Virus genome (UHGV): UHGV-0123328
Length of the DNA: 34,442 nucleotides
Direction: 5' to 3' (one strand)
Origin: a virus
Both the position numbers and the translations under genes were made by a program. Positions 1 to 17,347 of this stretch are shown here, in pieces; position 1 is the first letter of the stretch; each line of letters begins with the position of its first letter. The notes below the pieces were generated by a model, which saw only the letters and a program-made list of their open reading frames with translations, searched no databases and was not told where the DNA came from.

Positions 1-1271
1 TGGACGCGCCGATTGGCTACATGGGTTCCTTCAAGAATCTGTGCGACAAGCGCGGCGATACCACCAGCTTCGATGAATACTGGAAGAAAGACTCCACCGC
101 CGAGCTGTACCACTTCATCGGTAAAGATATTGTTTACTTCCACAGCCTGTTCTGGCCTGCCATGCTGGAAGGCAGCAACTTCCGCAAGCCGTCCAACCTG
201 TTTGTTCATGGCTATGTGACGGTGAACGGCGCGAAGATGTCCAAGTCTCGCGGCACCTTTATTAAAGCCAGCACCTGGCTGAATCATTTTGACGCCGACA
301 GCCTGCGTTACTACTACACTGCGAAACTCTCTTCGCGCATTGATGATATCGATCTCAACCTGGAGGATTTCGTTCAGCGCGTGAATGCCGATATCGTGAA
401 CAAAGTGGTTAACCTGGCCTCCCGTAATGCAGGCTTTATCAACAAGCGTTTTGACGGCGTGCTGGCAAGCGAACTGGCTGACCCGCAACTGTACAAAACC
501 TTTACTGATGCCGCTGAAGTGATTGGCGAAGCATGGGAAAGCCGCGAATTTGGTAAAGCTATCCGTGAAATCATGGCATTGGCTGACCTGGCTAACCGCT
601 ATGTCGATGAACAGGCTCCGTGGGTGGTGGCGAAGCAGGAAGGACGCGATGCCGATCTGCAGGCGATTTGCTCTATGGGCATTAACCTGTTCCGCGTGCT
701 GATGACGTACCTGAAGCCGGTACTGCCGAAACTGACTGAACGTGCAGAAGCATTCCTGAATACAGAACTGACCTGGGATGGTATCCAGCAACCGCTGCTG
801 GGCCATAAAGTAAATCCGTTCAAGGCACTGTATAACCGCATCGATATGAAGCAGGTTGAAGCACTGGTGGAAGCATCCAAAGAAGAAGTGAAAGCCACAG
901 CCGCACCGGTAACTGGCCCACTGGCTGACGACCCGATTCAGGAAACTATCACCTTTGACGACTTCGCCAAAGTTGACCTGCGCGTGGCGCTGATTGAAAA
1001 CGCGGAGTTTGTTGAAGGTTCTGACAAACTGTTGCGCCTGACACTGGATCTCGGTGGTGAAAAGCGTAATGTCTTCTCAGGCATCCGTTCTGCTTATCCA
1101 GACCCACAGGCACTGATTGGTCGTCACACAATTATGGTGGCTAACCTGGCTCCGCGTAAGATGCGCTTCGGTATCTCTGAAGGCATGGTGATGGCTGCTG
1201 GCCCTGGCGGAAAAGATATCTTCCTGTTAAGCCCGGATGCTGGTGCTAAACCAGGCCACCAAGTTAAGTAA
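1..1271 (+). CDS. metG: Methionyl-tRNA synthetase, C-terminal portion (5' truncated by the window edge; reading frame begins at nt 3)
   Basis: Translation (…[19 protein letters not shown]…KMSKSRGTF…ending AKPGHQVK) matches the C-terminal region of enterobacterial MetG as I recall it, including the KMSKS class I synthetase motif and the C-terminal tRNA-binding domain. Uninterrupted ORF to the TAA at 1269-1271. Confidence 0.96.
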
Positions 1272-1291
1272 CTAAACAACCATTCTTCACA

Positions 1292-1318
1292 ATGCCCGGC
1301 AACACGCTGGGCATTTTC
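1292..1318 (+). terminator. Rho-independent terminator of metG
   Basis: Inverted repeat ATGCCCGGC-aacac-GCTGGGCAT followed by TTTTCAT, about 20 nt after the metG stop. Confidence 0.6.
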
Positions 1319-1432
1319 ATATAGACACAATCCCTCCTGATTTACACAAGCCCTAAAACAATTTGTTTTCTACCTTTTGTTGATTGAGATAATAAGCCAC
1401 ATAAGAAAATAAATTGTTTCGGAGTGGTTGAA

Positions 1433-1732
1433 ATGTTGAACATTACCCAAGCCTACCAGGTGGCATTGATCAGTTCATCTCATACATCAGAGGAAGATGC
1501 TCGCCGATTCATGATCGCAAGCAATGAGCTGGATTGGGTTTCGCAAATTGACGGCGGTTGTATTGTCCACGCCGGGTTACAGGATGATGTCTGGAAAGGC
1601 GACTTGCGTCGATATGGTATATCCGAAGGCGCAATTGCTAACATTCAGAAAGTACTTGATGTAGGCTTTGACTCTGTACATTTTGATTGTGGTGCGCCGA
1701 TCGTTGAAGGGCTTGAGTGCTGGTGTTGGTAG
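1433..1732 (+). CDS. Hypothetical protein (99 aa; ORF track starts at GTG 1424)
   Basis: ORF with GGAG 8 nt upstream of ATG 1433; preceded by two AAACA-N3-TGTTT-like palindromes (1356-1368, 1406-1420). No recognisable domain. Confidence 0.5.
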   Translation: MLNITQAYQVALISSSHTSEEDARRFMIASNELDWVSQIDGGCIVHAGLQDDVWKGDLRRYGISEGAIANIQKVLDVGFDSVHFDCGAPIVEGLECWCW

Positions 1733-1902
1733 AGTGTATAAGCGGATCAATGAGTTACGGAAACAGTTAATAATGAGGAGCTTGTAATAAGCTGTATACC
1801 CTAGAAAAGCTAGACTAGGGAATAAAATGACGTGAAACTGGGCGAGACAGTAAATAATTCCGAATGATAATTGAACAAATAACCCCTTGCTCGGAGCTTG
1901 GA

Positions 1903-3093
1903 ATGACTGATACCGCTTTTTCAAAATCGTTACAAAAAGAAGTCGATCCTGAGCAGTACTTGGCGCTAAAGAATTTAGATGACAGCTCGGTTCATGCTAT
2001 TGCCCGTGACGATATCATCTGCCCCATTTGCAAAGTTGGAGGTGGTTCGTTCGTTAGAGCCACTAGGAATGGTGGCTATCACAAGAAGGCGCATTTCAGA
2101 TTTACCGGTGAAGATGGTCAAGGCCATCATCCATCATGTGATTTCTATGGAGATAGACTAACATCTGAGGTGAAGCAGCACCTTGTCTCATTCACAAAAG
2201 ATCGAACAAAGTATTCGCAGGTAATACGAAAGCTGGTCTGTGCCGGCATACAGGAAGGGATATTTACTCAAGAAAAAATGTGGCAGATGAGGGAATGGTT
2301 CTTCAATAAGCGAAAGGATTCCACATTTGAAATATGGTTAGAAAGCGAGCATTTAGACTGGCTTTATTATATTAGTGGGTTACGTGATGCATATCTAGCA
2401 TGGACAACTCCTGATATTCTACCTTTCGCGCCCATTCAGGTTACTGTGCCTGGTTTTTCTTGGAAGCGTGCGATTGACAAAGAGGTGCTAAGAGTTCACA
2501 TCAAGACTCTCCAGCAATTGCGTGAAATTTCAGTCTCACATAGAGACATTGCTGTAATCTTAGAACACATAAACAATAATCGTGACCGCACAATTCTCGA
2601 TCCATCGCATTTGGAGGACGAGATAAGTAAGACCTATAAGCTTACTAGTTTTGTGATGGGCAATTACATTGAGTTTCAGACAAAAACGGTTAGCGACAGA
2701 GCATACGGGGAAGCTAAGTTTCTGGCATTTGCAGCACTTTTGTTGTTCGTGTCAGATTGGGACCTCAACATTGCTATTGGTAAGTTTTCTAAGATTGCCA
2801 GAGTGAAGGAGGTTGATGACATGCTGGCTGGTAATTTCATTGGTCTTAATCCTTACTTCCGATACGACCTGGCTAATGCAGTGAAGAGATTGCAGGATAA
2901 CTGGCCGATTGAATACCAAGAGTTGGAGCATTGGAATGTTGAGAAATCCATGCGTGACGCATATGAAAAGTGGCGTGCGACAGAGCCTGAATTCGCTCCA
3001 CCCCTATTGCCAGACTTGTATATTGCCAAACATGAGAAAGAAGTCGCACAAGACGAGCAAGTCAGGCAGTGGATTGAGAACGGGGATGTTTGA
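1903..3093 (+). CDS. Hypothetical protein with N-terminal Cys/His cluster (396 aa from ATG 1903; alternative ATG 1864 gives 409 aa)
   Basis: Long ORF in a roughly 42% GC region; GGAG 6 nt upstream of ATG 1903. N-terminal CPIC…H…HHPSC arrangement suggests a zinc-binding ribbon. No other motif recognised. Confidence 0.6.
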   Translation: MTDTAFSKSLQKEVDPEQYLALKNLDDSSVHAIARDDIICPICKVGGGSFVRATRNGGYHKKAHFRFTGEDGQGHHPSCDFYGDRLTSEVKQHLVSFTKDRTKYSQVIRKLVCAGIQEGIFTQEKMWQMREWFFNKRKDSTFEIWLESEHLDWLYYISGLRDAYLAWTTPDILPFAPIQVTVPGFSWKRAIDKEVLRVHIKTLQQLREISVSHRDIAVILEHINNNRDRTILDPSHLEDEISKTYKLTSFVMGNYIEFQTKTVSDRAYGEAKFLAFAALLLFVSDWDLNIAIGKFSKIARVKEVDDMLAGNFIGLNPYFRYDLANAVKRLQDNWPIEYQELEHWNVEKSMRDAYEKWRATEPEFAPPLLPDLYIAKHEKEVAQDEQVRQWIENGDV

Positions 3094-3229
3094 GTGTAAT
3101 TAGCTTAATCAATCAGTTGATAATGGCGGTCACAATTTGATTCTTTTCTATAAGAATCCGTTGATCGCCACTACTCTTCTTCCATACCTGCAATCATACC
3201 CTTAAATATCAATAGGTTACTGTTGTTTA

Positions 3230-3990
3230 AGCCAATAAGAAAACAACTAAATAACAGATCAACGAAACATCAACGCTTTCACCCGATTTGGTCTAAAAAA
3301 TTGACGTTTTCACACATCACTGCTTATACCCGTAATTCTACACAGCAGACAGCGCCACAGCGTCCAATTTTCACCACAGACGACCCAACACACTACCAAC
3401 AAAAACACACGCTCAAAATCGCTCCCGTTGCGTTACACAACCATATAAACAACTTATTTTCAGGTATAACAAAACAACTAAATAACACATATGCCATTCC
3501 CCATAACAACCAACCTCTTTATGGCAGGCTACCGAAAAGACCCACCTCTTCTTCTCAGGCTATCGGACAACCAACCTAACTTTCACAGGCAATCCGAAAA
3601 CATTCATACGCGCAATACCCACGACACGCCATTACCCAAACAGCGAAGAAACACCAGAATCACTGAAACCCCAACGAAGCCTGTAACCGCAAGGTTTCTC
3701 TCAATCCCAAAAGACACGAAACATAACAATCACGGGAAACGCCATTACCCAATACACGAATAACTACAAAAGCCCTTCACGCACTCCAGACAAACAACTC
3801 AAACACAATAACGAAAGCAATCGCCCACCTGCCATTACTCCATACACGGAGAAGAACAATCACCAAAACGACGAGAACACCCCATAGAAGAACCACCGCA
3901 AAACGAACGAAACCACATACACCGACAGAGAGAACAACACGCCCAATTCACCAACAGAAATAGTCGCCGTATAGAACGTTCTGGAAGGGG
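3230..3990 (+). other. A+C-rich, G-depleted non-coding tract with three copies of a GCCATTAC(C/T)C-N-ATACACG motif
   Basis: Extreme strand compositional skew visible by eye. Motif copies at about 3626-3641, 3738-3758 and 3829-3849. Only low-complexity ORFs on the plus strand and none of 60 aa or more on the minus strand. Confidence 0.6.
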
Positions 3991-4174
3991 GTGAGCATTA
4001 ACGCCTATAGAGAGGTTGAGACAGATAAAACACGAAGAAAACACAACATGTATAGCGAAGAAGCAAGGTATGTATAAGTGGGGAGGGAAGGAGGGGTGTC
4101 GCCTCCTTTTTCGTATTTATTCAACTCCTGATTTTATCCCCCGTAACACCCCTACGGTCAGCCTTCGGTCCATA

Positions 4175-4309
4175 CAGGGAAAAGGCTGCATCCCGCTACA
4201 GAAACGGCTGGGTTGCCTTCGGGGAACGGCTGGGGATTTTCAGGGAAACGGTCGAGTTGCCTGTGTGGATTTCGGGAAAAGGCTCGATGCCGGTTCAGGA
4301 ACGGCGGCG
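4175..4309 (+). repeat. Iteron-like direct repeat array 1 (six copies of C(A/G)GGRAAMRGC at 21-32 bp spacing)
   Basis: Copies start at 4175, 4199, 4220, 4241, 4273 and 4296: cagggaaaaggctg, cagaaacggctgg, cggggaacggctgg, cagggaaacggtcg, cgggaaaaggctcg, caggaacggcggcg. Confidence 0.7.
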
Positions 4310-4622
4310 TACCGGTATAGCGAGAGGGAGAGTTGCGGCTACCCACCTGTAATGTGCGGGAAGAAGAGAGGCGCTCACGTGCAGGCGAACTTACTTACCG
4401 CTGGATTCCCTCTGAATGCCCAGCTACAGCGTAATTGTGCCAGACAGCCAACGGGTCACAATCGATTTCAGTAGGTTTTCGGGGAGATGATTATTCTGCC
4501 CACCAGCCACCTTCGGCCACTAAATCAGAATAATGTAAAAAGTGTACTCGGTACTGAACCTGAAAACTCACTGCCAAAACCACATTCACCGGAATAAAAT
4601 CCTTTTTCGCCTGTGCGTTATT

Positions 4623-4660
4623 GCGATAATAACACCAACGAGAAAACAAGTTGTTTAAGG
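4623..4660 (+). promoter_or_regulatory. Conserved promoter/operator-like module, copy 1 (GCGATAAT…AGAAAACAAGTTGTTTAAGG; palindrome 4644-4656)
   Basis: Nearly identical to the copies at 6760-6796 and 7245-7284. Palindrome AAACA-agt-TGTTT ends 12 nt before ATG 4669. Confidence 0.6.
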
Positions 4661-4668
4661 ATTGCTTT

Positions 4669-4998
4669 ATGTTTGCAAATATCGACATCAACCAAATCAA
4701 GAAATTAACTCAAAAAGAGTTTGATCAGTTTTATGAGTTAGAAGGTTGGTCTTCCACTCTGATCAATTCGCGGTGGGTGCTTGAGCTGATGACTCGTGAT
4801 GACGCACCTGCTTTGATGATTTGCGACATGGGTGAAGATGCTGACTTTATGGATATGAGCGAATTTTGTGTGGACACATACAACCGCAGCCAGAAGTACT
4901 ACTTCACATGCGATAGCGAAAATGACGTGATTTCTAAGGTCTATCTTCACCTCGTCCAGCATTGGGACGTTCAGGAGTTTCTTGAAGTATTCGAGTAA
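4669..4998 (+). CDS. Hypothetical small protein (109 aa; ORF track starts at TTG 4651)
   Basis: ORF with AAGGA Shine-Dalgarno 8 nt upstream of ATG 4669; conserved upstream module; stem-loop 5008-5026 downstream. Confidence 0.6.
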   Translation: MFANIDINQIKKLTQKEFDQFYELEGWSSTLINSRWVLELMTRDDAPALMICDMGEDADFMDMSEFCVDTYNRSQKYYFTCDSENDVISKVYLHLVQHWDVQEFLEVFE

Positions 4999-5007
4999 CC
5001 CCAACCA

Positions 5008-5034
5008 AAGCCAGCATTGCTGGCTTAATTTCTC
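5008..5034 (+). terminator. Stem-loop / putative terminator (AAGCCAGC-att-GCTGGCTT followed by a T-rich run)
   Basis: 8-bp perfect stem and T-rich tail, 10 nt after the stop at 4998. Confidence 0.5.
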
Positions 5035-5151
5035 TATAGCCGCAGGGAAGAACCTGCATATCGCTCATGCACCTGATCAATATGCTTTGTAGCCGTTTTC
5101 TTACTGGTATTATTTACGCCATTGAGAAAACAAGTTGTTTACGGAGTTGTG

Positions 5152-5463
5152 ATGAAAAAATCATTGGTTCTTGGTCTGGACAAAGACCAGAAGAGAAAAG
5201 AGAAGCCTGCACTGGTTGCTCAATTAACTTTGCTAGACATCGTTGCCAATGGAACCTCTATTCGTCTGTTCCGTGAAACAGCGGTGTCTTTCGATAAAAA
5301 CACCTTTACTCGTTATGTAATGAATGTTCGTCGCCAGCGTGGAAAAGGCTGGATGGCATTTCAAAGAATGTGGCCGGAACATCAGCTCGAACTGGCTTTG
5401 ATGGAAGTTAACCGCGTGGCCCAGCAAGAAATTCAGAGAGCATCAGTGATGGCAATAGCCTGA
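5152..5463 (+). CDS. Hypothetical small basic protein (103 aa; ORF track start 5122)
   Basis: ACGGAG Shine-Dalgarno 5 nt upstream of ATG 5152; AAACA-agt-TGTTT palindrome at 5128-5140; terminator downstream. Confidence 0.6.
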   Translation: MKKSLVLGLDKDQKRKEKPALVAQLTLLDIVANGTSIRLFRETAVSFDKNTFTRYVMNVRRQRGKGWMAFQRMWPEHQLELALMEVNRVAQQEIQRASVMAIA

Positions 5464-5497
5464 TAATGTGCAAGTGGTAATTAGTCGACAGTACGAC

Positions 5498-5527
5498 AGC
5501 CCCGCCATCCTTACGGGGCTTTTTTGT
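5498..5527 (+). terminator. Rho-independent terminator
   Basis: AGCCCCG-ccatcctta-CGGGGCT followed by TTTTTTG. Confidence 0.7.
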
Positions 5528-5589
5528 ATTGTAAGTACATACTTACGATCATAGAATAGAAAAATAACCAATACACTACGGAGAGTGAA

Positions 5590-5985
5590 ATGACCGTTAA
5601 ACGCGAAAAACTGACAGTTGATGTTTACTATGCCTCTGAAACCGCCGAAGGTAAGAATGTGGCAAAAATCACCGTTGTTACGTACAACACCGAAACTGGT
5701 GCCGAAGTCCAGGCCAGTACGATCGTGCGTAAAGGTGATGCCTCCGGCGGCGAGTACGCGACTCAATACCAGTCTATTTTCGATGCAACTGACCCGCTGC
5801 TGCTGAAAATCGAGAACTACTTCCGCCAGGTTGATGAAGAGGTGTTTGAACCAATGATGAATATGGTTAACACCGTATTCGCCTCCAACCTGAATACCAA
5901 CACTACCTGGATTGGTCAGTACGGCCTGCGCATTACCTCTGGCATTCCTGCCGACACCTTAATCCCTGAAAGCGTATTCGCTTAA
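5590..5985 (+). CDS. Hypothetical protein (131 aa)
   Basis: ORF with GGAG Shine-Dalgarno; preceded by the GTAAGTA-ca-TACTTAC palindrome (5531-5546); hairpin plus T-run downstream (5994-6024). Confidence 0.6.
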   Translation: MTVKREKLTVDVYYASETAEGKNVAKITVVTYNTETGAEVQASTIVRKGDASGGEYATQYQSIFDATDPLLLKIENYFRQVDEEVFEPMMNMVNTVFASNLNTNTTWIGQYGLRITSGIPADTLIPESVFA

Positions 5986-5993
5986 TCCTCTTT

Positions 5994-6024
5994 AAATGGC
6001 GCGCAAACCGCGCCATTTTATTAT
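5994..6024 (+). terminator. Rho-independent terminator
   Basis: AAATGGCGCG-caaac-CGCGCCATTT followed by TATTAT. Confidence 0.65.
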
Positions 6025-6102
6025 GCCCGATAACAATTTGTTTTCTGCCTTATCTGATTTGTGAAAATGATTTCACTGAAGCAACTTAATAAGGAAACCA
6101 TC

Positions 6103-6477
6103 ATGGGACTTGATATCTATATCGAGACACAGCCTAAAAACGATCTGAATAACGAGGCATCCAGAAAGCAGGTTGCTTACTTCCGTAAGTTCAATGCGCT
6201 CGTTGGGTGGATGGAGCGCAACGTAGGTGAAGTCGAAAATTGTGAGCTTTTAGAATTAACGATGAATGACATTTGTTTTCTGAAGGCTCATTTGATGCAC
6301 ATAAACGAAAGTAATTGCGAAGAGTACTTGCCTACCCGGGAAGGTTTTTTCTTCGGCAGTCAGGAGTACGATGAAGGTTACTGGCATGATGTGGGGCAGT
6401 TGAAAGAGCTTGTGGAAGATCTGATTAAGAACCACGACTTTCACAATAACAGACTGACCTTCTGCGCCTGGTGGTAA
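6103..6477 (+). CDS. Hypothetical protein (124 aa from ATG 6103; ORF track starts at GTG 6061, alternative ATG 6067)
   Basis: Strong TAAGGAAACC Shine-Dalgarno before ATG 6103; AACA-att-TGTTT palindrome at 6031-6043 upstream. Confidence 0.55.
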   Translation: MGLDIYIETQPKNDLNNEASRKQVAYFRKFNALVGWMERNVGEVENCELLELTMNDICFLKAHLMHINESNCEEYLPTREGFFFGSQEYDEGYWHDVGQLKELVEDLIKNHDFHNNRLTFCAWW

Positions 6478-6479
6478 AT

Positions 6480-6623
6480 ATGGGCGATTTCAAGAAACGC
6501 CTGAAGGAAAGAGCCGAGATGGTCAGAAAGCAAAACGCCTCTTCTGTCATCAGATACGCAAGGCAGTTTAGTCGCAACAACAAATCAGTTGAGGAAAAGA
6601 TCCTTAGCGTAATCGGGCGATAA
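6480..6623 (+). CDS. Possible small basic protein (47 aa), translationally coupled to the preceding gene
   Basis: ATG 6480 lies 2 nt after the upstream stop; Lys/Arg-rich ORF ending immediately before stem-loop 6627-6654. Not in the ORF track because it is under 60 aa. Confidence 0.3.
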   Translation: MGDFKKRLKERAEMVRKQNASSVIRYARQFSRNNKSVEEKILSVIGR

Positions 6624-6626
6624 TTA

Positions 6627-6654
6627 TTAAGACCACCAGCATTGGTGGTCTTAA
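6627..6654 (+). terminator. Stem-loop TTAAGACCACCA-gcat-TGGTGGTCTTAA (putative terminator or RNA processing/stability element)
   Basis: 12-bp perfect stem. A covarying twin occurs at 7098-7125. Confidence 0.5.
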
Positions 6655-6759
6655 ATGACTTTTAATAACCGAAGGTTAGTTTGAAACCTGGCTATCAACT
6701 TCCAGAACCTTTCTTGTGTATTCAGCCTGTATTAACTTCTTTTATGCCTTATCTACACT

Positions 6760-6796
6760 GCGATAATTACACCAACAAGAAAACAACATGTTTACG
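6760..6796 (+). promoter_or_regulatory. Conserved promoter/operator-like module, copy 2 (palindrome AAACA-aca-TGTTT at 6781-6793)
   Basis: GCGATAATTACACCAACAAGAAAACAACATGTTTACG; near-identical to copies at 4623-4660 and 7245-7284. Confidence 0.6.
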
Positions 6797-6812
6797 CAGT
6801 GAGGATATGCTC

Positions 6813-7094
6813 ATGACTGATTTCACCATTACCCCTAAAGCACAAAATGTATTTCTTGAATCATGGCTGGACTTGCCGGAAACAGAACAGCAAGAAATGG
6901 ATCATGTGGATTATGACGAGCAGGTAAGCACGCGATTCTTCCACTTTGAGGGCTGCGTTTACGACATTGCCGACTTCATGCGAGATGACCGCTTCCCTGA
7001 ATGGCACGCCAGTTATCCACTAAACGCCTTCGCCATGCTGATGATCCGTGTGGGTGATTCAGGGGATACCATCGACATCGGTCTGCTCCACTAA
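6813..7094 (+). CDS. Hypothetical small acidic protein (93 aa; ORF track start 6681)
   Basis: GAGGA Shine-Dalgarno 7 nt upstream of ATG 6813; conserved module upstream; stem-loop downstream. Confidence 0.55.
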   Translation: MTDFTITPKAQNVFLESWLDLPETEQQEMDHVDYDEQVSTRFFHFEGCVYDIADFMRDDRFPEWHASYPLNAFAMLMIRVGDSGDTIDIGLLH

Positions 7095-7097
7095 AGA

Positions 7098-7125
7098 TTA
7101 AGGCCACCAATGCTGGTGGCCTTAA
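7098..7125 (+). terminator. Stem-loop TTAAGGCCACCA-atgc-TGGTGGCCTTAA
   Basis: 12-bp perfect stem, compensatory to the 6627-6654 copy (A:T pair replaced by G:C). Confidence 0.5.
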
Positions 7126-7244
7126 ATGACCATCCTGTTTCCCGCAGGCTAAAAACACCAACCTCTTACCTCCAGGCAACCGACAAACCCACCTGTTCCC
7201 GTCCGGCTACCGCAACTTTCCACTTTGACGCCTTATTCGTACAA

Positions 7245-7284
7245 CGATAATTAACGCCAACAAGAAAACAATTTGTTATTTACG
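7245..7284 (+). promoter_or_regulatory. Conserved promoter/operator-like module, copy 3 (palindrome 7266-7278)
   Basis: ACGATAATTAACGCCAACAAGAAAACAATTTGTTATTTACG upstream of ATG 7299. Confidence 0.6.
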
Positions 7285-7298
7285 ATAAGGAATTAATC

Positions 7299-7781
7299 AT
7301 GAATTTTATCGCTACTGTAAACGCACCCGCACATGGCAATATCGCTGTAACGTTCTCTGACATTGAAAAACGAGTACTTGGTGCCTGGCGTCACAATGAG
7401 ACGGTAGAACTGTCAGAACAAGAAAAATGCATTATTGCACGCGACATCATTGGCAATCGTCGTTACTCGCGGGTATTTGAGAAAGCATATGTGGTAAATT
7501 CTGGGTTCGGAACGTTCGTCTTTCCGGTGCGCTCAGGGCGATTCTGCCAGTCCAAGCTGATTGAGTTCGCTACGCAGATTTCTGTCTGGATTAAAACTCA
7601 ATCGTCGTTCAAATTTTCCGACGATGAAGCAGTATCGCAGGGGATGCGGATCGCCAACAATGCGATTAAATGCAAAAACATTACGTATACCGCTGGCGTT
7701 GATACATGGAAACTGTTTTGCGCTAACTTTATGCTGAATGTATACGCAAGCAACCGCATCCACATCCTTGATGGCGTGTAA
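7299..7781 (+). CDS. Hypothetical protein (160 aa)
   Basis: TAAGGA Shine-Dalgarno 7 nt upstream; conserved module upstream; terminator 7790-7813 downstream. Confidence 0.65.
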   Translation: MNFIATVNAPAHGNIAVTFSDIEKRVLGAWRHNETVELSEQEKCIIARDIIGNRRYSRVFEKAYVVNSGFGTFVFPVRSGRFCQSKLIEFATQISVWIKTQSSFKFSDDEAVSQGMRIANNAIKCKNITYTAGVDTWKLFCANFMLNVYASNRIHILDGV

Positions 7782-7789
7782 CTGAGAAG

Positions 7790-7813
7790 AGGGCCAGAAA
7801 CGGCCCTTTCTCT
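7790..7813 (+). terminator. Rho-independent terminator
   Basis: AGGGCC-agaaac-GGCCCT followed by TTCTCT. Confidence 0.6.
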
Positions 7814-7830
7814 ATAGCCACCAGCTGCCG

Positions 7831-7910
7831 CAGGGAAATTTTCAGAAACGGCGAGGAACGTATTCATGAGCCGACGGGAAACGGCCAGGATTTTTTCGGG
7901 AAACGGCGGG
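7831..7910 (+). repeat. Iteron-like direct repeat array 2 (four copies; same family and orientation as 4175-4309)
   Basis: cagggaaatt, cagaaacggcgagg, cgggaaacggccagg, cgggaaacggcggg. Extended match GGATTTT(TT)C(A/G)GGGAAACGG shared with array 1. Confidence 0.7.
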
Positions 7911-8335
7911 GGTCGCCTTTATGTAGAAAACTGAGCGGGAGAAACCCGGAATCGCGCCAGAAATTGCGTAGCGGCGCTGGGGTATCGCTGGTGGGGGTTT
8001 CAGCCCCTGGGCCATCCAGATAGCTTTCGCTATGTGATTATGTGAATCCGTGGGTAAATCACTGTAAGCGCGTACACGTTGCCCAACGTGGCAATCATAT
8101 GCGAGCGGACACAGAACAACACAAAATGCCGATCCGCGCCGACAATTAAACGCGGATCACATAGCAAGAATAAAAGCCAATGATTAACCATACACCATAA
8201 CGCAATATAACGCGATTTAAGCGCGTTAATGCGCTAAGTAATGGGTATGTACTGGTAAGGATATAAAAGCGCGTCTATGGCGTTATTTTGGCGCTTATTT
8301 TTATGTTGTTGGAGTGAGTTAAAGACAATAAAAAA

Positions 8336-8401
8336 GCGCCATCATTGGCGCGTTATGGTGGGAGTATTGGAAACGAAAAAAGCGCCCACAGTGGGCGCTC
8401 G
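8336..8401. terminator. Pair of GC-rich hairpins (GCGCCA-tcat-TGGCGC and AGCGCCCA-ca-TGGGCGCT) flanked by A and T runs; likely bidirectional terminators
   Basis: Perfect stems with AAAAAA 5' and, for the second, TTTTATTT 3'. Same family as the hairpin at 8653-8669. Confidence 0.55.
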
Positions 8402-8404
8402 ATT

Positions 8405-8635
8405 TTATTTATGTAAACTGATTTCAAATCCCATTTCTACAAACGCTTTTAACATTAAAAATATATCAGCGTCATTCACGTCTGCTTTTTTTCGCTCCTG
8501 GTCGCTCAATAAGTCAATTTTGCGCGTCGTTTCATCGATAAACTCGACTGCGCGCCCAGCGTAACCAGCGATCCCAGCGATGCGATTAACAAAATATTCA
8601 TTGCGCACGTTAACGCCAGCGATAAGAATAAACAT
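8405..8635 (-). CDS. Hypothetical small protein (76 aa)
   Basis: AAGGAG Shine-Dalgarno 6 nt upstream of the ATG; bracketed by GC-rich hairpins. Confidence 0.5.
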   Translation of the reverse strand: MFILIAGVNVRNEYFVNRIAGIAGYAGRAVEFIDETTRKIDLLSDQERKKADVNDADIFLMLKAFVEMGFEISLHK

Positions 8636-8682
8636 GATTAAGCTCCTTAAAAGCGCCCATAGTGGGCGCCAGATTCCATTAA

Positions 8683-9333
8683 TTACGCTTTGAAAGCATC
8701 AGCCAGATAGTTATAGAAATCATTTTTAATAAAGCGATATTGCTGAGTGCCAGCTTTGGCGCTCCCAGCTCCTTTGACTTTTTCAACAAGTCCCAGACGT
8801 TCGCAAAGATTGATAAGCTGGTTGGCTTGAGTGTATCCTGCGTCTAATTTTATTTCGTTGGCTTTTTTCGCTTCATTCATTAAATCGAAAACAGCGCCAT
8901 TTGTGAACGTCTCGATCTCGTCGTTAATCATATCGATTAATGCGAATACACGAGATCCGGACATATCAGCGACGGAATAAACACACTTTCCAGCTTTAAT
9001 GGATTTAACCAGATAAACCAGTTTTTCCAGAGAATAACTGTTAGTCATTGCATCACGGAAAAAAACTTCTGGCGCTTGTTTGCTTGCTTTGATCGCATAG
9101 TAGAAAACAGAGCATAATTTTTCGTCTTCTACAGCGTTTACAACGTTGTTGATGAAGTAAGCAAGTTTAGTGGTCGCAGCTTGCATATTTGCTTTGTCTG
9201 CTTTAGTGTGCGTACCATTTTTATAATGTTCGTTATATGTTTGAGTTGCCAGATCTGCTTTTTCGCGCAGTTCATCGGATACAATGGAAGCAGCTTCAAT
9301 GATGGATTTTTTAGAAATGATAATGTTAGTCAT
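8683..9333 (-). CDS. Hypothetical protein (216 aa), AT-rich moron-like gene
   Basis: Clean ORF of about 40% GC with its own upstream intergenic region (9334-9570); hairpin 8653-8669 immediately downstream. Confidence 0.6.
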   Translation of the reverse strand: MTNIIISKKSIIEAASIVSDELREKADLATQTYNEHYKNGTHTKADKANMQAATTKLAYFINNVVNAVEDEKLCSVFYYAIKASKQAPEVFFRDAMTNSYSLEKLVYLVKSIKAGKCVYSVADMSGSRVFALIDMINDEIETFTNGAVFDLMNEAKKANEIKLDAGYTQANQLINLCERLGLVEKVKGAGSAKAGTQQYRFIKNDFYNYLADAFKA

Positions 9334-9567
9334 GATTTCAATCCTTAGTATAAAATTTAATTGTCGTTAGCTATTTCGCTTTCGATGAGTCCAATTATCG
9401 ATATTAGAAAAAAGATTGCAAGCGTTTTTTTAAAATTTTTTGCAGGGATGAAAGTCCTAGAAATAAAAGCGAGATCGTCGAAGGTGTTCCCTAAATAAAT
9501 AATCGATTCCGGCTTTTGACCTTATATATTTATACGGGGGAGAATTGAAAGGGTATTAAATGAATGG

Positions 9568-9601
9568 CATGTAAAATAATAACCGGACTTAGCCGGTTAT
9601 T
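9568..9601 (-). terminator. Rho-independent terminator for the 173-aa gene
   Basis: TAACCGG-acttag-CCGGTTA with a T-run following on the minus strand. Confidence 0.65.
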
Positions 9602-9614
9602 ACCCTTATAGAAA

Positions 9615-10136
9615 TTAAAACGGAAGGATTCGTTCAACCCAATCGAAGAAAATAAGAATTTTTCTGCCGTCTTTCAACTTAAGTGTGACTAGGCAGGCAT
9701 CAACGCCATCTGACGTTCCCTCAATTTCGCGGCCGTCTGCCATGTAGACCCTTATAGATTGGCCGTTTTGATAAGCCTTGCGACATATCTTAAAAAAATC
9801 ACGACGTGATGGCTGGTTGTCTACATAGTCAGGGTGTATTGTTAGTCTCCCTTTGAAATCGTAATCAATGCCATCAATTACGCCTGATTCAATTGTGCTA
9901 ATGCGCTCAAGTGGGAGCCTTATACGATTTTCTTTGTCAAATGGAGTTGGACAAAGGTCAACTTTGTTACGAGATGACATGAGACCATAAACGTACATGC
10001 AAAACACTTGGCCGTCTTCGAGAGTGACTCTTACAGGAAATTTAGCCCCCCGCCAGAAGAGCAAGGTGCGTTCAGCATGTTCGTAGTCTCGCGGCCATAC
10101 TTCAGCCGGTATGCCGTAGGTGATGTCTTTAACCAT
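9615..10136 (-). CDS. Hypothetical protein (173 aa) with an internally repeated (R)VxLxDG motif
   Basis: ORF with its own terminator. Motifs VRVTLEDGQ, IRVYMADGR and VTLKLKDGR suggest repeated small beta-rich units. Confidence 0.6.
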   Translation of the reverse strand: MVKDITYGIPAEVWPRDYEHAERTLLFWRGAKFPVRVTLEDGQVFCMYVYGLMSSRNKVDLCPTPFDKENRIRLPLERISTIESGVIDGIDYDFKGRLTIHPDYVDNQPSRRDFFKICRKAYQNGQSIRVYMADGREIEGTSDGVDACLVTLKLKDGRKILIFFDWVERILPF

Positions 10137-10238
10137 AGTCTACCTTTTTAAGTCTTTTTTGGTCATTATATACATCTCTATGATGCGTAGACAGACTAAC
10201 CGTACATTCCACCAAAAATTGATTATGGAATAAGTTTC

Positions 10239-11039
10239 ATGAAGAATGGGATGAATAAAAAATACTCATTAGCATTGTTAATAGCGGCTTTACTATTAAC
10301 AGGTTGTGATTCTGATGAAGAGCGAGCCATAAATCTAGTTGAAAAGGATATTCGCTCTACACTGCTAGATCCTGATGCTGGTCGGTTCACGAATATGCGA
10401 GCTATTCAGTTAGGTGAAAATAGCTATTCATATATGGTATGTGGAGAGGTGAATGGCAAAAACGTCTTGAACGCCTATACAGGTGCGACCGCATTCAATG
10501 CACACATCTTTGATGTTCGTGAACGTAACCCGATTGTATTCGTTACAATGGATAAAAGTACCAACTCGGCAAGAGAACGATTACGTTTTGAACGCCAAAA
10601 TCTAGCATGTAAAGAAAATGGTGTGAAACTTTATCTGGAAAACGAATCTAAAATCAGGAAGGAAAAAGAGAAAATAGATGATTTAAAAAAAACTCCATTA
10701 GGTCAGGCTGTGTTTGATGCTGCAAGTGACTCGACATATGTGAGTAGAGAGTTGGGCGAATCGAGAGGTGTTAGTGAAGTGTATGCAAGAGAAAATGATA
10801 AATATGCCCTTGTTAGCGTCACCAATTATGACACTCCTGACTTTTACAAATTTAGGAAAAAAGACAACGGTGAATTAGAACCTGTTAGAGGGCTGTCTTA
10901 TACCGGCTATCCATTCGCAGTTGCGCTGTGCCATTCTGAACAAACAGATTATGACAAATGCATAACAGAAGAAGAAATCAGGTTGCTTCGAGACGAAAAG
11001 AATAAGCTCGACGATTTTGTCGTACCACCAGAAGAATAA
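10239..11039 (+). CDS. Predicted lipoprotein (266 aa; alternative start ATG 10251)
   Basis: N-terminal signal peptide ending in the lipobox LLTGC; Lys/Glu-rich C-terminal region. Transcribed divergently from the 173-aa gene. Confidence 0.65.
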   Translation: MKNGMNKKYSLALLIAALLLTGCDSDEERAINLVEKDIRSTLLDPDAGRFTNMRAIQLGENSYSYMVCGEVNGKNVLNAYTGATAFNAHIFDVRERNPIVFVTMDKSTNSARERLRFERQNLACKENGVKLYLENESKIRKEKEKIDDLKKTPLGQAVFDAASDSTYVSRELGESRGVSEVYARENDKYALVSVTNYDTPDFYKFRKKDNGELEPVRGLSYTGYPFAVALCHSEQTDYDKCITEEEIRLLRDEKNKLDDFVVPPEE

Positions 11040-11097
11040 CATATACAAAATATTTAATTGCTGTAAAATTTAATCGTTCAGACATAGGGAAAGCCCG

Positions 11098-11140
11098 ACG
11101 CCCTCGACAAATCTTTTTGGTATCGTCGAGGGCGTGTTTC
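11098..11140 (+). terminator. Stem-loop (11-bp perfect stem ACGCCCTCGAC / GTCGAGGGCGT, 16-nt loop) after the lipoprotein gene
   Basis: Perfect inverted repeat followed by GTTTC; weak T-run. Confidence 0.4.
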
Positions 11141-11427
11141 AGATATGCATCCTATTGAACTCTTCAGATTTATAGGTAGATAGCGTTAATTGGCGTTTTT
11201 GTTCTTCTCTTTTTTGCAAATTTCATCACATGCAATATCATCTACTATATTTCTTAGGTCACACGTTTTTATAAATTGTCGCATATATCCTCCGAATTTC
11301 TTCGGAGACGAAGCCTACAAATATCATTCAGCCTATCAAGATCTTTTTTTTTCAGCCGAAGGTATATACATTCAAAAATGTGATGAGTGTCACATGCAGG
11401 TGCTCTCATACACCTGCATGTAGACTA

Positions 11428-11994
11428 TTAATCATTCAATAATCTATATTTTCTTTTGATTAAATCTTCACCTTTTTTGGTGAACACAAAACCAAATTGC
11501 GATTTTTTGTTCAGCCTAAGGACTCTGTTATCCAACGCATCGGTTGATGGAATCAATGTTTGATCATCTATCCAATTAAGTAGCGTAAGAAAGTTCAGCA
11601 GCCTCAACGTTGTTGTGCGAAGCTCTTTCGATATATTTTCAATGCTGGCAATTCGTCTTTCTTTTTTCTCAGGTGGTACAGATAATTGTTCTTGAGGTTT
11701 CGTGGATAGATAATCAATTTCGTTTGCAGCATCGAATGATATGTGTGGCGTTATTTTGCTAAAAAAGCCTTTCGCTGACTCACTTGATAATAAACCAGAC
11801 CTATTCATATCGTTTGTTATTCTGTACAGGAGTGGACTGTGTTTCATTTCAGGATAACGTTGATAAAAGTTAAGCAATTCAAAAGCAGCATTAGCGCCAA
11901 CAAGAAAATCAGAAGGATCGCTGACTTTCCAGAAAGAATGATTTTTCTTAGCGCCAGTGGTGTCAACAAATGATAATTCTTTTAACCAACTCAT
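11428..11994 (-). CDS. Hypothetical protein (188 aa from ATG 11994; ORF track start 12027)
   Basis: Last gene of the minus-strand helicase operon. AAAGGAG Shine-Dalgarno before ATG 11994. Inverted repeat CATGCAGGTG-N8-CACCTGCATG (about 11394-11421) downstream. Confidence 0.6.
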   Translation of the reverse strand: MSWLKELSFVDTTGAKKNHSFWKVSDPSDFLVGANAAFELLNFYQRYPEMKHSPLLYRITNDMNRSGLLSSESAKGFFSKITPHISFDAANEIDYLSTKPQEQLSVPPEKKERRIASIENISKELRTTTLRLLNFLTLLNWIDDQTLIPSTDALDNRVLRLNKKSQFGFVFTKKGEDLIKRKYRLLND

Positions 11995-12027
11995 GATGTG
12001 CTCCTTTCTAACAAGTGAGCACATCAT
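11993..12027 (-). promoter_or_regulatory. Perfect 11-bp inverted repeat (ATGATGTGCTC / GAGCACATCAT) enclosing the ribosome-binding site and start codon of the 188-aa gene
   Basis: On the mRNA strand: AUGAUGUGCUC-acuuguuagaaag-GAGCACAUCAU-G. The Shine-Dalgarno sits in the loop/stem junction and the AUG at the 3' end of the stem. Confidence 0.5.
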
Positions 12028-12059
12028 AGAATTAGTAGATAGGGGGTAAATATGAAATG

Positions 12060-12338
12060 TTACGGCAACCTGCTCAGTATTTCCTCTAAATCTTTTTTTG
12101 TCATATTGGAGTTTTCATAGATGCGCATGATTTTCTCACGCGTCTTAGCGGAAACCCCAACAGCAGATGTGACTTTGTCAAATTCAGCCATAGTCATCGT
12201 CTCCAGAATGGCATTGATAACTTCAGCCTTAGACATCTTGATTTTTTTCTCTTTGAGTTTTATTTGAAATTTTCCAAGTTTTTCATTGGCCTTATCAGAC
12301 AATGCCACTTGGCAATAAGTTGTTTTCTTTTCGCTCAT
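12060..12338 (-). CDS. Hypothetical small protein (92 aa), Lys/Glu-rich
   Basis: ORF starting 3 nt after the helicase stop (translational coupling). Confidence 0.55.
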   Translation of the reverse strand: MSEKKTTYCQVALSDKANEKLGKFQIKLKEKKIKMSKAEVINAILETMTMAEFDKVTSAVGVSAKTREKIMRIYENSNMTKKDLEEILSRLP

Positions 12339-12340
12339 AA

Positions 12341-13900
12341 CTAATCTCGTTTCAGAACTCCAAAATCGAATGCGCCATCAATAGGCAATACACCTTCTGC
12401 AAAGCCAGGTGTGGTGTCGATGATGTGTTTTCGCTCATAAGAGTGAGACAACAGGTATTTGTTGCTAATGTCAATGAAATCAGTGATAAAACACACGTTT
12501 GCCTGATTCTTCTTGGCTCGTAAGCCACGACCGACACGCTGTCTCATTTCAACTTCTGCTTTCCCACCACCAGCAAGAATGACCGCACCAACGCTTGGCA
12601 CATCAACACCAACATCCAGAATAGTCGAGCCTATTAAAACATCTATTTCACCAGACGCTAAACTGTTCAGCTTTGCTTGCCTTGTCGACTGGTTCGATTC
12701 CCCATAAATGAAGTCAACTCTAAGGCCGGACTCTTTCATCATTTCCATCAGGATTTGCCCGTGGCGTTTAAGACGAACCAGAGTCATACAATTGAGAGAA
12801 TGTTGCTTATAGAGCAATGCTTCGCGAACAATGGCCTCATTACGTCCCAAATTATACACGATCCCCAACTGATAAGCCTTTTGGTAGGCTGTGCTCATAC
12901 CTACTCTAAAATTGAGGTGTTTGTTGGCAAGTTCCGCCTTTATTCTGACCTCGTCTGGCTTGTAGGCAACTTTATGATAAAGGAAGTACGGTTTTGCCAG
13001 AATGCCTCGATCAATCAGGTACTTTTCTGTGACTTTGATTTCAATTCGCCCAGCCACAGCCATCAGACGCATGTTGGCTTCTGTAGAATCCTTCATGAAC
13101 GGCGTGGCCGTAAGTGCCAGACGATAGTCTGCGTTCACACATAATCTGGCAATGTCATAGAAATTAGAACCTGAAGACTCATGCGCCTCTTCCAGAATAA
13201 GCAGAGACACACTTGAAAGGAAGCGTTTCACCAAGTCCCGACGTTTGAGGTGGTAGCTCTTCTTATCTGGAGTTGCATCGCGTGGTGGTTCTTCAAGGAA
13301 ACTTGCCAGAGTTTGAACTGTAGCGACGTTGATATGTCGTGATACCTGGAACTCACCAGAGCCAATGACTCCAACCTTTTGGTCTTTTAACCACGGTTCG
13401 CCATTTTCGGCGCGGTAGTCGATGGATCTCTGGAAGTTTTCGGCCATTTGAAACATCAGAACAGAGCGGGTTGTTAAAAATAATGTCATTCGACCGATAC
13501 GTGCAGCTGCTTTGCAGGCAACATTAGATTTCCCGCCACCAGTAGCGATCTGCGCAATCATCATTCCCTCTCGAACCAGTGTTTCCACAGTCTGATCCTG
13601 ATACGCATAATCAGGATTGTATGGGAATGGGTTAACCGCCGGATTTGGTTTACCAAGCGCCGGGGCTTTGTCTTTGCGGATATGAACACATTTGATGCCC
13701 GCCTTGTTCAAGTTCGCCGCTACAGGCTTGGCAAAGCCAGCAGGGAACGAGTTTTTACTCCAGTTGAACATCGTGCTTGTGCCCTTCCAGTCGCCAGTCT
13801 CGACTTCGTAGCTCAACATCTGTTGCACCATTTGCTTTACCTTGTCATCTGCGCCAGAAATAAGCGCATTAACTGCGTTAGATACAATCCGAACAGTCAT
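12341..13900 (-). CDS. Superfamily 2 DEAD/DEAH-box helicase (519 aa), probable phage replication/recombination helicase
   Basis: Motif I ATGGGKS, motif II LILEEAHE, motif III LTATP and motif VI QRVGRGLR. AAGGAAAGAGG Shine-Dalgarno before the ATG at 13900. Confidence 0.8.
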   Translation of the reverse strand: MTVRIVSNAVNALISGADDKVKQMVQQMLSYEVETGDWKGTSTMFNWSKNSFPAGFAKPVAANLNKAGIKCVHIRKDKAPALGKPNPAVNPFPYNPDYAYQDQTVETLVREGMMIAQIATGGGKSNVACKAAARIGRMTLFLTTRSVLMFQMAENFQRSIDYRAENGEPWLKDQKVGVIGSGEFQVSRHINVATVQTLASFLEEPPRDATPDKKSYHLKRRDLVKRFLSSVSLLILEEAHESSGSNFYDIARLCVNADYRLALTATPFMKDSTEANMRLMAVAGRIEIKVTEKYLIDRGILAKPYFLYHKVAYKPDEVRIKAELANKHLNFRVGMSTAYQKAYQLGIVYNLGRNEAIVREALLYKQHSLNCMTLVRLKRHGQILMEMMKESGLRVDFIYGESNQSTRQAKLNSLASGEIDVLIGSTILDVGVDVPSVGAVILAGGGKAEVEMRQRVGRGLRAKKNQANVCFITDFIDISNKYLLSHSYERKHIIDTTPGFAEGVLPIDGAFDFGVLKRD

Positions 13901-17175: not shown

Positions 17176-17230
17176 CCTGCTTCTGTATATATAAATAATA
17201 AGTAACTTATTAAATATATACGGAAGCAGG
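17176..17230. promoter_or_regulatory. Large imperfect palindrome (about 27-bp arms, CCTGCTTC…GGAAGCAGG) centred on AATAAGTAACTTATT
   Basis: Arms CCTGCTTCTGTATATATAAATAATAAGT and ACTTATTAAATATATACGGAAGCAGG. Located between the regulator-like gene and the small terminase gene. Confidence 0.6.
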
Positions 17231-17347
17231 CTTAGTAAGACATGCCCAGACCTAATTAAACACCCCAGAAAACAAGTTGGTTAGCAGATGCAGTAAACAA
17301 GTTGTTTTAGAGCGCATGGACGCGCTCTGTGTGTTTTAGAGGGATCT

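Follow-up and report, generated by a model that had tools for sequence, protein, structure and literature searches.

The DNA directly downstream of metG (methionine-tRNA ligase) in the virus genome UHGV-0123328, here analysed as one window of 34,442 nucleotides, raises the question of what the two genes within positions 1272-3093 are and whether they belong together. An earlier reading of the sequence alone (the sequence-only reading) had taken them for a compositionally foreign two-gene unit at a prophage junction, probably defence or lysogenic-conversion cargo. Both open reading frames are present as it had described them, at 1424/1433-1732 (102/99 aa) and at 1864/1903-3093 (409/396 aa). The region, however, consists of two independent genes of an SSU5-supergroup phage-plasmid, where gene 2 (referred to as X) forms a self-contained and dispensable one-gene cassette. 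For the 396-aa protein X, the leading candidate is a role in immunity, exerted on its own against phages or plasmids that enter the cell, though this reading falls somewhat short of being probable.

When the window was compared by blastn with other E. coli elements of the SSU5 type, homology broke at position 1731 and resumed at 3106-3117, leaving a cassette slot at 1732-3105 (plus strand) whose content differs between elements: 12 bp in PhiR41_1, 220 bp in CMS-2020a, 785 bp with a gene for 244 aa in Cyrano and X in the window. Among complete E. coli genomes, out of ~200-231 plasmids with the metG-DUF5983 arrangement, the slot holds X in 36 cases (all on plasmids), the Cyrano cassette in 29 and the 220-bp filler in ~95. 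The occupant in Cyrano is a coiled-coil protein of 244 aa (locus L002, 6506-7240) that gave no match when searched against PADLOC, and the 220-bp filler is non-coding (locus L016, 2960-3179). The edges of the cassette, at 1731 and 3106, are sharp. The idea of a two-gene unit did not hold, since the operator is found at gene 1 only, in relatives it is gene 2 by itself that is exchanged or missing, and homologues of gene 2 outside SSU5-type elements never accompany DUF5983.

Upstream of X a consensus scan predicts a promoter-like site at 1844-1871 on the plus strand (GAGACA, 16 nt, GATAAT), and no copy of the operator palindrome found before gene 1 (see below) was detected in the 170-nt spacer preceding X (1733-1902). 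Homologues of X at other loci have a TGATAAT-like -10 box of their own and GGAGCC-N4-ATG. The cassette may be driven from its own promoter-like site, independently of the gene 1 operator. SSU5, pHCM2 and Klebsiella elements, all without metG, share the order DUF5983, X and a ~1.4-kb non-coding stretch, with an amino acid identity of X of 87% in pHCM2, 69% in Klebsiella and 57% in SSU5. Because this synteny occurs alongside swapped and empty slots, X is a long-established yet dispensable resident of the supergroup.

The 396-aa form of X (1903-3093, plus strand) is preferred to the 409-aa form starting at ATG 1864, which lacks a ribosome-binding site. The start of the 396-aa form is the one annotated in p3PT-111kb (a plasmid 99.6% identical to the window, whose RefSeq annotation was used for comparison), a GGAG lies ~9 nt ahead of it, and position 1903 corresponds to the Met1 that is invariant when the family is aligned. 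Gene 2 matched PHROG 12525 (phrog_12525) over its full length (E 5.7e-210; profile positions 1-396 of 399 aligned with residues 14-408 of the 409-aa form). When 1.84 billion representative sequences were searched with a profile, the family came to only 177 proteins, nearly all of 360-400 aa and of one architecture, and a repeated homologue search with a broad alignment added almost no members. No paper was found when the literature was searched for X by accession, locus tag and PHROG id.

The N-terminal Cys/His cluster reported in the sequence-only reading (CPIC, residues 40-43, and HHPSC, residues 75-79) proved to be conserved in the family. The codons of C40-P-I-C43 (2020-2031, plus strand) encode a putative first zinc knuckle and those of H75-H-P-S-C79 (2125-2139, plus strand) the second half of a putative CCHC zinc site; C40, C43, H75 and C79 are invariant across 74 homologues with identities down to ~20%. 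In the AlphaFold2 (AF2) model beta-strands at residues 48-67 follow CPIC, and the four conserved ligands in their CxxC…HxxxC pattern suggest that X binds zinc. M1, S7 and E13 are also invariant, and T4, Q18, D37, R130, W132, W286, G310, N311, G314 and P317 nearly so. Residues 1-20 (1903-1960), with the pattern M-x-x-T-A-[YF]-S … E-[LIV]-D-x-E-Q, are among the best-conserved stretches of the family. Since the invariance of S7 together with E13 is unusual, the conserved N-terminus suggests a functional surface beside the zinc site.

The AF2 model (predicted local distance difference test, pLDDT, 81.9; predicted template modelling score, pTM, 0.72) proposes a beta-rich, zinc-ribbon-like N-terminal domain around CxxC…HxxxC and an all-helical C-terminal part; the model was made without metal, and its confidence is low at residues 70-87. 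The helical part is predicted to include a UBA-like three-helix bundle. Substitutions relative to pHCM2, SSU5 and Klebsiella are concentrated at third codon positions with the periodicity lost past the stop codon, and dN/dS is 0.126 against pHCM2 and 0.059 against the Pectobacterium copy. X is a real gene under strong purifying selection, as the substitution pattern, the invariant ligands and the confident model show.

Apart from the Cys/His cluster no recognisable motif had been seen in gene 2, and database searches agreed with this. X gave no Pfam family above noise, the 74 family members gave scattered Pfam noise with at most two members per Pfam family, and PADLOC-DB 2.0.0 gave no defence family, the sole match being SP_VI (E 0.007, 30 residues). 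The family profile searched against PDB sequences reached a best E of 0.82, which is noise, and Foldseek revealed no fold match for the model in PDB or BFVD. X is a structural orphan and a member of no described family; the structure and profile searches gave a confident model with a conserved zinc-type site, and no known family or fold. Homology to a housekeeping function was found for neither gene 1 nor gene 2.

When species-representative genomes were scanned with a 15-sequence alignment, 63 loci with X were found in alpha-, beta- and gamma-proteobacteria and in cyanobacteria, 59 of which were sampled for neighbours. All-vs-all clustering of 744 neighbour open reading frames from these 59 loci revealed no conserved operon partner; the homologues occur singly, be it on plasmids, in prophages or in chromosomal islets. 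In Pectobacterium X is located in a two-gene chromosomal islet after ychF, on IncX1 plasmids in an accessory region beside a NACHT protein or AbiD. In Klebsiella lambdoid prophages it separates the O/P replication genes from the Q antiterminator, with a Panacea-domain gene and a pyocin nearby. When several homologue neighbours were searched against PADLOC, AbiD on an S. Dublin plasmid was the sole match. In Pantoea X has a RES-domain gene as its neighbour, and in Acinetobacter SIR2 and PIN genes lie close to it. A search of 50,697 phage genomes gave matches confined to SSU5-type records, with none in virulent phages, and among 2.9 million IMG/VR contigs ~30 X loci were found, several of them at most ~1 kb from a contig end.

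The neighbourhoods of the homologues were searched for defence genes in a partial scan covering one or two large neighbours per locus within 5 kb. At least ~20 of the 59 loci had a strong PADLOC or Pfam defence match in this range, the systems seen being Gabija, Hachiman, Lamassu, DRT, CBASS and restriction genes. Among 20 further large neighbours, one per locus, there were full-length matches to HamB, Drt1a and LmuA (each E = 0) and also to LmuB, PDC-S28, NERD+UvrD and a type IV restriction enzyme, and a CBASS SMODS cyclase was also found among the neighbours. The most recurrent neighbour Pfams were AAA_15, OLD-TOPRIM, UvrD, ResIII, RVT, integrase and type IV secretion (T4SS), and TniQ recurs as well. 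Set against a background rate that is itself an estimate and not a computed value, this fraction of loci might be higher by an order of magnitude.

Gabija GajA/GajB are the most recurrent neighbours (11 of the 59 loci, in mixed orientations), and in three unrelated lineages, Sphingomonas, Pseudomonas and Xanthobacter, X lies directly upstream of gajA and is co-oriented with it. In Sphingomonas, Pseudomonas antarctica and Xanthobacter/Prosthecomicrobium the distance to gajA-gajB is 70-120 bp on the same strand, while in Halomonas/Vreelandella X comes directly after hamA-hamB; the tight adjacencies between X and defence genes are found in loci L044 (8001-13240), L051 (7992-11955), L066 (7632-13046) and L017 (3673-9134). 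X as an obligate Gabija component was rejected, the association being limited to 11 of 59 loci with mixed orientations, and so was the name GajC, which in type II Gabija is used for a MazF-like protein (PMC13069673). The plasmid-dependent drop in phage plating described for Klebsiella p2 was not used as evidence for X because its authors attribute it to a restriction-modification system.

Because the homologues of gene 2 occur in defence-rich neighbourhoods, defence cargo is the best single guess for X. The cargo idea of the sequence-only reading survives in this part, gene 2 being dispensable, mobile and with defence-rich homologue neighbourhoods, and fails as a junction insertion shared with gene 1. 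Sharp cassette edges, swappable alleles, mobility as a lone gene, a promoter-like region and Shine-Dalgarno sequence of its own and the absence of matches in virulent phages also argue for defence. In the proposed mechanism X would be expressed in the lysogen, the CCHC zinc ribbon together with the conserved N-terminus might recognise nucleic acid or an invader protein, and the helical C-terminal part with its UBA-like bundle would bind or block rather than catalyse. It is possible, although rather doubtful, that X founds a new and structurally novel family of single-gene immune proteins with non-catalytic zinc-ribbon recognition. Members of the X family occur in Proteobacteria and cyanobacteria, and SSU5-type phage-plasmids (including pHCM2 of S. 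Typhi), IncX1 plasmids and lambdoid prophages are among their carriers. X shares several traits with single-gene anti-phage systems from hot spots of prophages, satellites or plasmids (such as the PD-T4, PD-T7 and PD-Lambda genes and proteins of the AbiD/AbiH type): each is one autonomous gene with a promoter of its own (in X a promoter-like site) that occupies a variable slot of a temperate element, is distributed sparsely and patchily among taxa and is found near other defence systems. X is akin to the known single-gene hot-spot cargo of temperate elements in defence islands, from which it differs in having a fold without known counterpart and no effector domain.

Several points weigh against an immune function. 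The evidence consists of sequence, a model and gene neighbourhoods, and any excess in the neighbourhoods depends on partial sampling and an estimated background rate. X is not in PADLOC 2.0, and according to a preprint survey from 2025 (10.1101/2025.09.12.675607) DefenseFinder 1.3 detects no system in pHCM2-like elements, although pHCM2 encodes an X of 87% identity. No enzymatic, toxin or membrane domain is recognisable in X, a lack seldom seen among single-gene defences but frequent among inhibitors. In pHCM2 and SSU5, moreover, X begins only 9-32 bp after the preceding gene, inside the operator-controlled early block, and this closeness to operator-controlled genes fits an early, phage-serving function.

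These last points lead to the main rival, an unlikely but substantial one, in which X is a counter-defence or establishment factor, that is, an early non-enzymatic inhibitor of host immunity, of the SOS response or of restriction. The lack of a catalytic fold, with only a zinc ribbon and helical modules of a binding type, would suit such an inhibitor, and so would the location of X in a plus-strand block of small early genes together with an orphan methyltransferase, HumD and DUF5983, its operonic arrangement with operator-controlled genes in pHCM2 and SSU5, and carriers that are phage-plasmids, conjugative plasmids and prophages. Anti-defence genes such as ArdA, KlcA, PsiB, Gad1 and Had1 are known from the leading regions of plasmids and the early regions of phages. 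X resembles them in being of a binding, non-enzymatic type and in its place within a group of small early genes with repeated promoter/operator sequences. An inhibitor is more difficult to reconcile with the absence of X from virulent phages and with the many homologues on large chromosomal contigs adjoining intact defence systems, and co-oriented adjacency to gajA or hamB would be self-defeating for an inhibitor of those same systems. The stand-alone chromosomal islet in Pectobacterium does not favour it either, and 396 aa is large for a typical inhibitor.

The adjacency and shared orientation of X with different complete systems (Gabija in three lineages, Hachiman in Halomonas/Vreelandella) could also be expected if X were a regulator or adaptor of defence islands, functionally like BrxR or CapW, that senses a signal and controls or assists neighbouring immune operons, and a zinc ribbon with helical domains could bind DNA. 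Pfam scans detected no helix-turn-helix (HTH) or WYL domain in X, at most loci no neighbouring system recurs in a constant arrangement, and X has nothing to regulate where it stands by itself, as on the phage-plasmid, in the prophage and in the Pectobacterium islet, which makes this role improbable. Still less probable is a backbone function of SSU5-type elements (replication, partition or packaging) tied to the downstream non-coding and iteron-like region; the conserved order of DUF5983, X and the ~1.4-kb non-coding stretch, shared by SSU5, pHCM2 and the Klebsiella and E. coli elements, and the iteron-like repeats at 4201-4310 speak for it, but most E. coli members, including the complete PhiR41_1 and Cyrano, lack X or have a replacement and keep the non-coding region, and homologues at other loci occur without that region. 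Both roles lose weight because X occurs without partners in several settings and because some complete phage-plasmids naturally do without it.

Concerning the element itself, the first 6 kb of the window matched E. coli plasmids of ~110 kb with 97-99.6% identity and the remainder matched the E. coli phages PhiR41_1, CMS-2020a and Cyrano with 95-99%; for Salmonella phage SSU5 the identity was 81% over terminase, capsid and tail genes. The identity is collinear, includes the morphogenesis genes and is accompanied by residence as plasmids of ~100-115 kb. Because of the identities to the three E. coli phages and to the structural genes of SSU5, the whole window is assigned to an SSU5-supergroup phage-plasmid, ~110 kb in E. 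coli. Within E. coli, X was matched on plasmids only, nearly all of 107-115 kb.

The window contains the 3' part of metG at 21-1271 (plus strand; annotated as metG on p3PT-111kb), followed, as the sequence-only reading had stated, by a strong hairpin and U-run, an intrinsic terminator at 1291-1315 (plus strand; 10-bp stem, 5-nt loop, UUUUC; RNA fold -16.9 kcal/mol, z -4.96). In the p3PT-111kb annotation metG and the divergently transcribed apbC have phage-plasmid genes on both flanks. All 5,422 chromosomal E. coli metG matches are only ~91% identical, with the homology ending exactly at the metG stop codon (1271), and SSU5, pHCM2 and the Klebsiella relatives have no metG at the corresponding position. 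The divergent apbC-metG pair, in a chromosome-like arrangement, is a feature of the SSU5-type phage-plasmids that form the E. coli clade (p3PT locus L001, 5980-9271), and apbC shares with metG the ~91% identity to the chromosomal copy and the absence from SSU5, pHCM2 and the Klebsiella relatives. Being plasmid-borne, ~91% identical to the chromosome and missing from these relatives, metG and apbC are host-derived cargo of the phage-plasmid.

That the region downstream is more AT-rich than metG was borne out (GC content 0.431 for 1272-3093 versus 0.521 for metG, with 0.434 for gene 2; GC3 0.59 vs 0.44), but the argument built on it has to be inverted, since ~43% GC is normal for the early region of the element (0.419 at 4651-13000), and metG, at 0.52, is the foreign part and the compositional outlier. 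A foreign insertion between chromosomal metG and an integrated prophage, for which the GC step at 1271/1272 is the only point in favour, has practically no probability left, as the full matches are all on ~110-kb plasmids, chromosomal metG is ~91% identical with no homology downstream, and metG and apbC are enclosed by phage-plasmid genes. The two genes are not core genes of the chromosome either, the loci bearing X at this position being plasmid-located.

Both the phage-plasmid and its metG are already known. A phage-plasmid-encoded metG in multidrug-resistant Shigella sonnei has been linked to tolerance (PMC12452169), and the metG-carrying SSU5-group phage-plasmids of S. sonnei and E. coli are the same type of element with the same plasmid-borne metG as here. 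That literature deals with metG and describes neither the cassette slot nor protein X.

Gene 1 (1433-1732, plus strand) encodes a DUF5983 (YeeW-like) protein of 99 aa that matched Pfam PF19419 with 39.5 bits (cut-off 27) over profile positions 3-90 of 90 and phrog_5003 with an E of 1e-47. The 102-aa form starting with GTG at 1424 was rejected, the p3PT-111kb annotation and the Shine-Dalgarno sequence GGAG at 1421-1424 both favouring 99 aa. DUF5983 homologues of 43-45% identity are found at the same position in pHCM2, Klebsiella p2 and SSU5. The only other setting from which the family is known is that of CP4-44-type islands, where YeeW/DUF5983 copies are located downstream of cbtA (PMC10790755; bioRxiv 10.64898/2026.06.09.728211). 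Gene 1 resembles these in matching PF19419 above the curated cut-off and is unlike them in having metG as its upstream neighbour and a phage-plasmid operator leader instead of cbtA/cbeA, neither of which is annotated within ~8 kb on either side in p3PT-111kb. In its sequence gene 1 is an ordinary DUF5983 member.

The operator family AAACA-N3-TGTTT noted before gene 1 was confirmed with two copies (1356 and 1407) and is enriched in the window, where the palindrome AAACANNNTGTTT (at most one mismatch) gave 11 matches against 2.25 expected and none of 100 shuffles reached 11. A pattern search placed a perfect, strand-neutral copy at 1356-1368. The gene 1 leader (1388-1424, plus strand) contains a -10 box GATAAT at 1388-1393, the operator copy AAATAAATTGTTT at 1407-1419 and the Shine-Dalgarno sequence GGAG at 1421-1424, and the same layout precedes small genes at 4644, 5128, 6781 and 7266. 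Since this leader is the standard one of the element, the suggestion that gene 1 is regulated with the phage is supported, and gene 1 is probably a regular early-region gene with a putative operator between -10 box and ribosome-binding site.

The palindrome has this fixed place, between GATAAT and the Shine-Dalgarno sequence, in several small early genes (1356-7278). The small terminase gene is closely preceded by two further copies, at 17270 and 17295 (region 17270-17307), and the linear genome records of SSU5 and Cyrano begin at about window position 17213. The set has the appearance of a scattered-operator regulon, as with C1 of P1, the alternative being an element of the 5' untranslated region (5' UTR); the palindrome could act on DNA or within the 5' UTR. 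A 173-aa regulator of the element, encoded at 9615-10136, is a candidate for the binding protein. A second indel hot spot lies at 4641-4657, where p3PT-111kb and PhiR41_1 have ~360 extra bp encoding a 71-aa gene. As this insert is bounded by duplicated promoter/operator copies, the repeated leaders may be recombination points that shuffle small early genes.

Past the edge of the cassette a stable hairpin was found at 3124-3170 (plus strand) in the conserved backbone (fold of 3094-3230, -29.2 kcal/mol, z -3.46), a possible terminator or RNA stabiliser. It is followed at 3200-4000 (context 3094-4650) by ~800 nt of non-coding DNA with 70-77% A+C on the plus strand and G down to 8%, which has many indels yet retains 65-70% identity to pHCM2, SSU5 and the Klebsiella elements and persists without X. 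No codon periodicity, DnaA boxes or tandem repeats were found at 3200-4000, and Rfam gave no match in window positions 1-12000 at E <= 1. The open reading frames 3223-3579 and 3491-3763, annotated as coding sequences in some phage records, look spurious. A C-rich, G-poor transcript of 3200-4000 would suit Rho loading or a protein-sponge RNA, and an intrinsic terminator at 4085-4111 ends the A/C-rich region. Iteron-like repeats GRAACGGC(T/G)GGG (at most two mismatches, 11 matches versus 3.8 expected) form two intergenic clusters 3.6 kb apart, at 4201-4310, with three successive copies spaced 22 bp apart, and at 7845-7911; they may be candidate sites for a replication, partition or regulatory protein.

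The analysis separates what is truly cargo at this locus from what is not, and delimits a variable slot for a single gene, of which there are four or more alleles. Phage-plasmids of the SSU5 type are frequent in E. coli, Shigella, S. Typhi (pHCM2) and Klebsiella, and their metG copy has been linked to antibiotic tolerance. X offers a concrete and cheap candidate for defence and counter-defence screening. If inert, it would be an ordinary hypothetical gene in a variable region; if protective, widespread clinical "cryptic" plasmids without a detected defence system would carry one.

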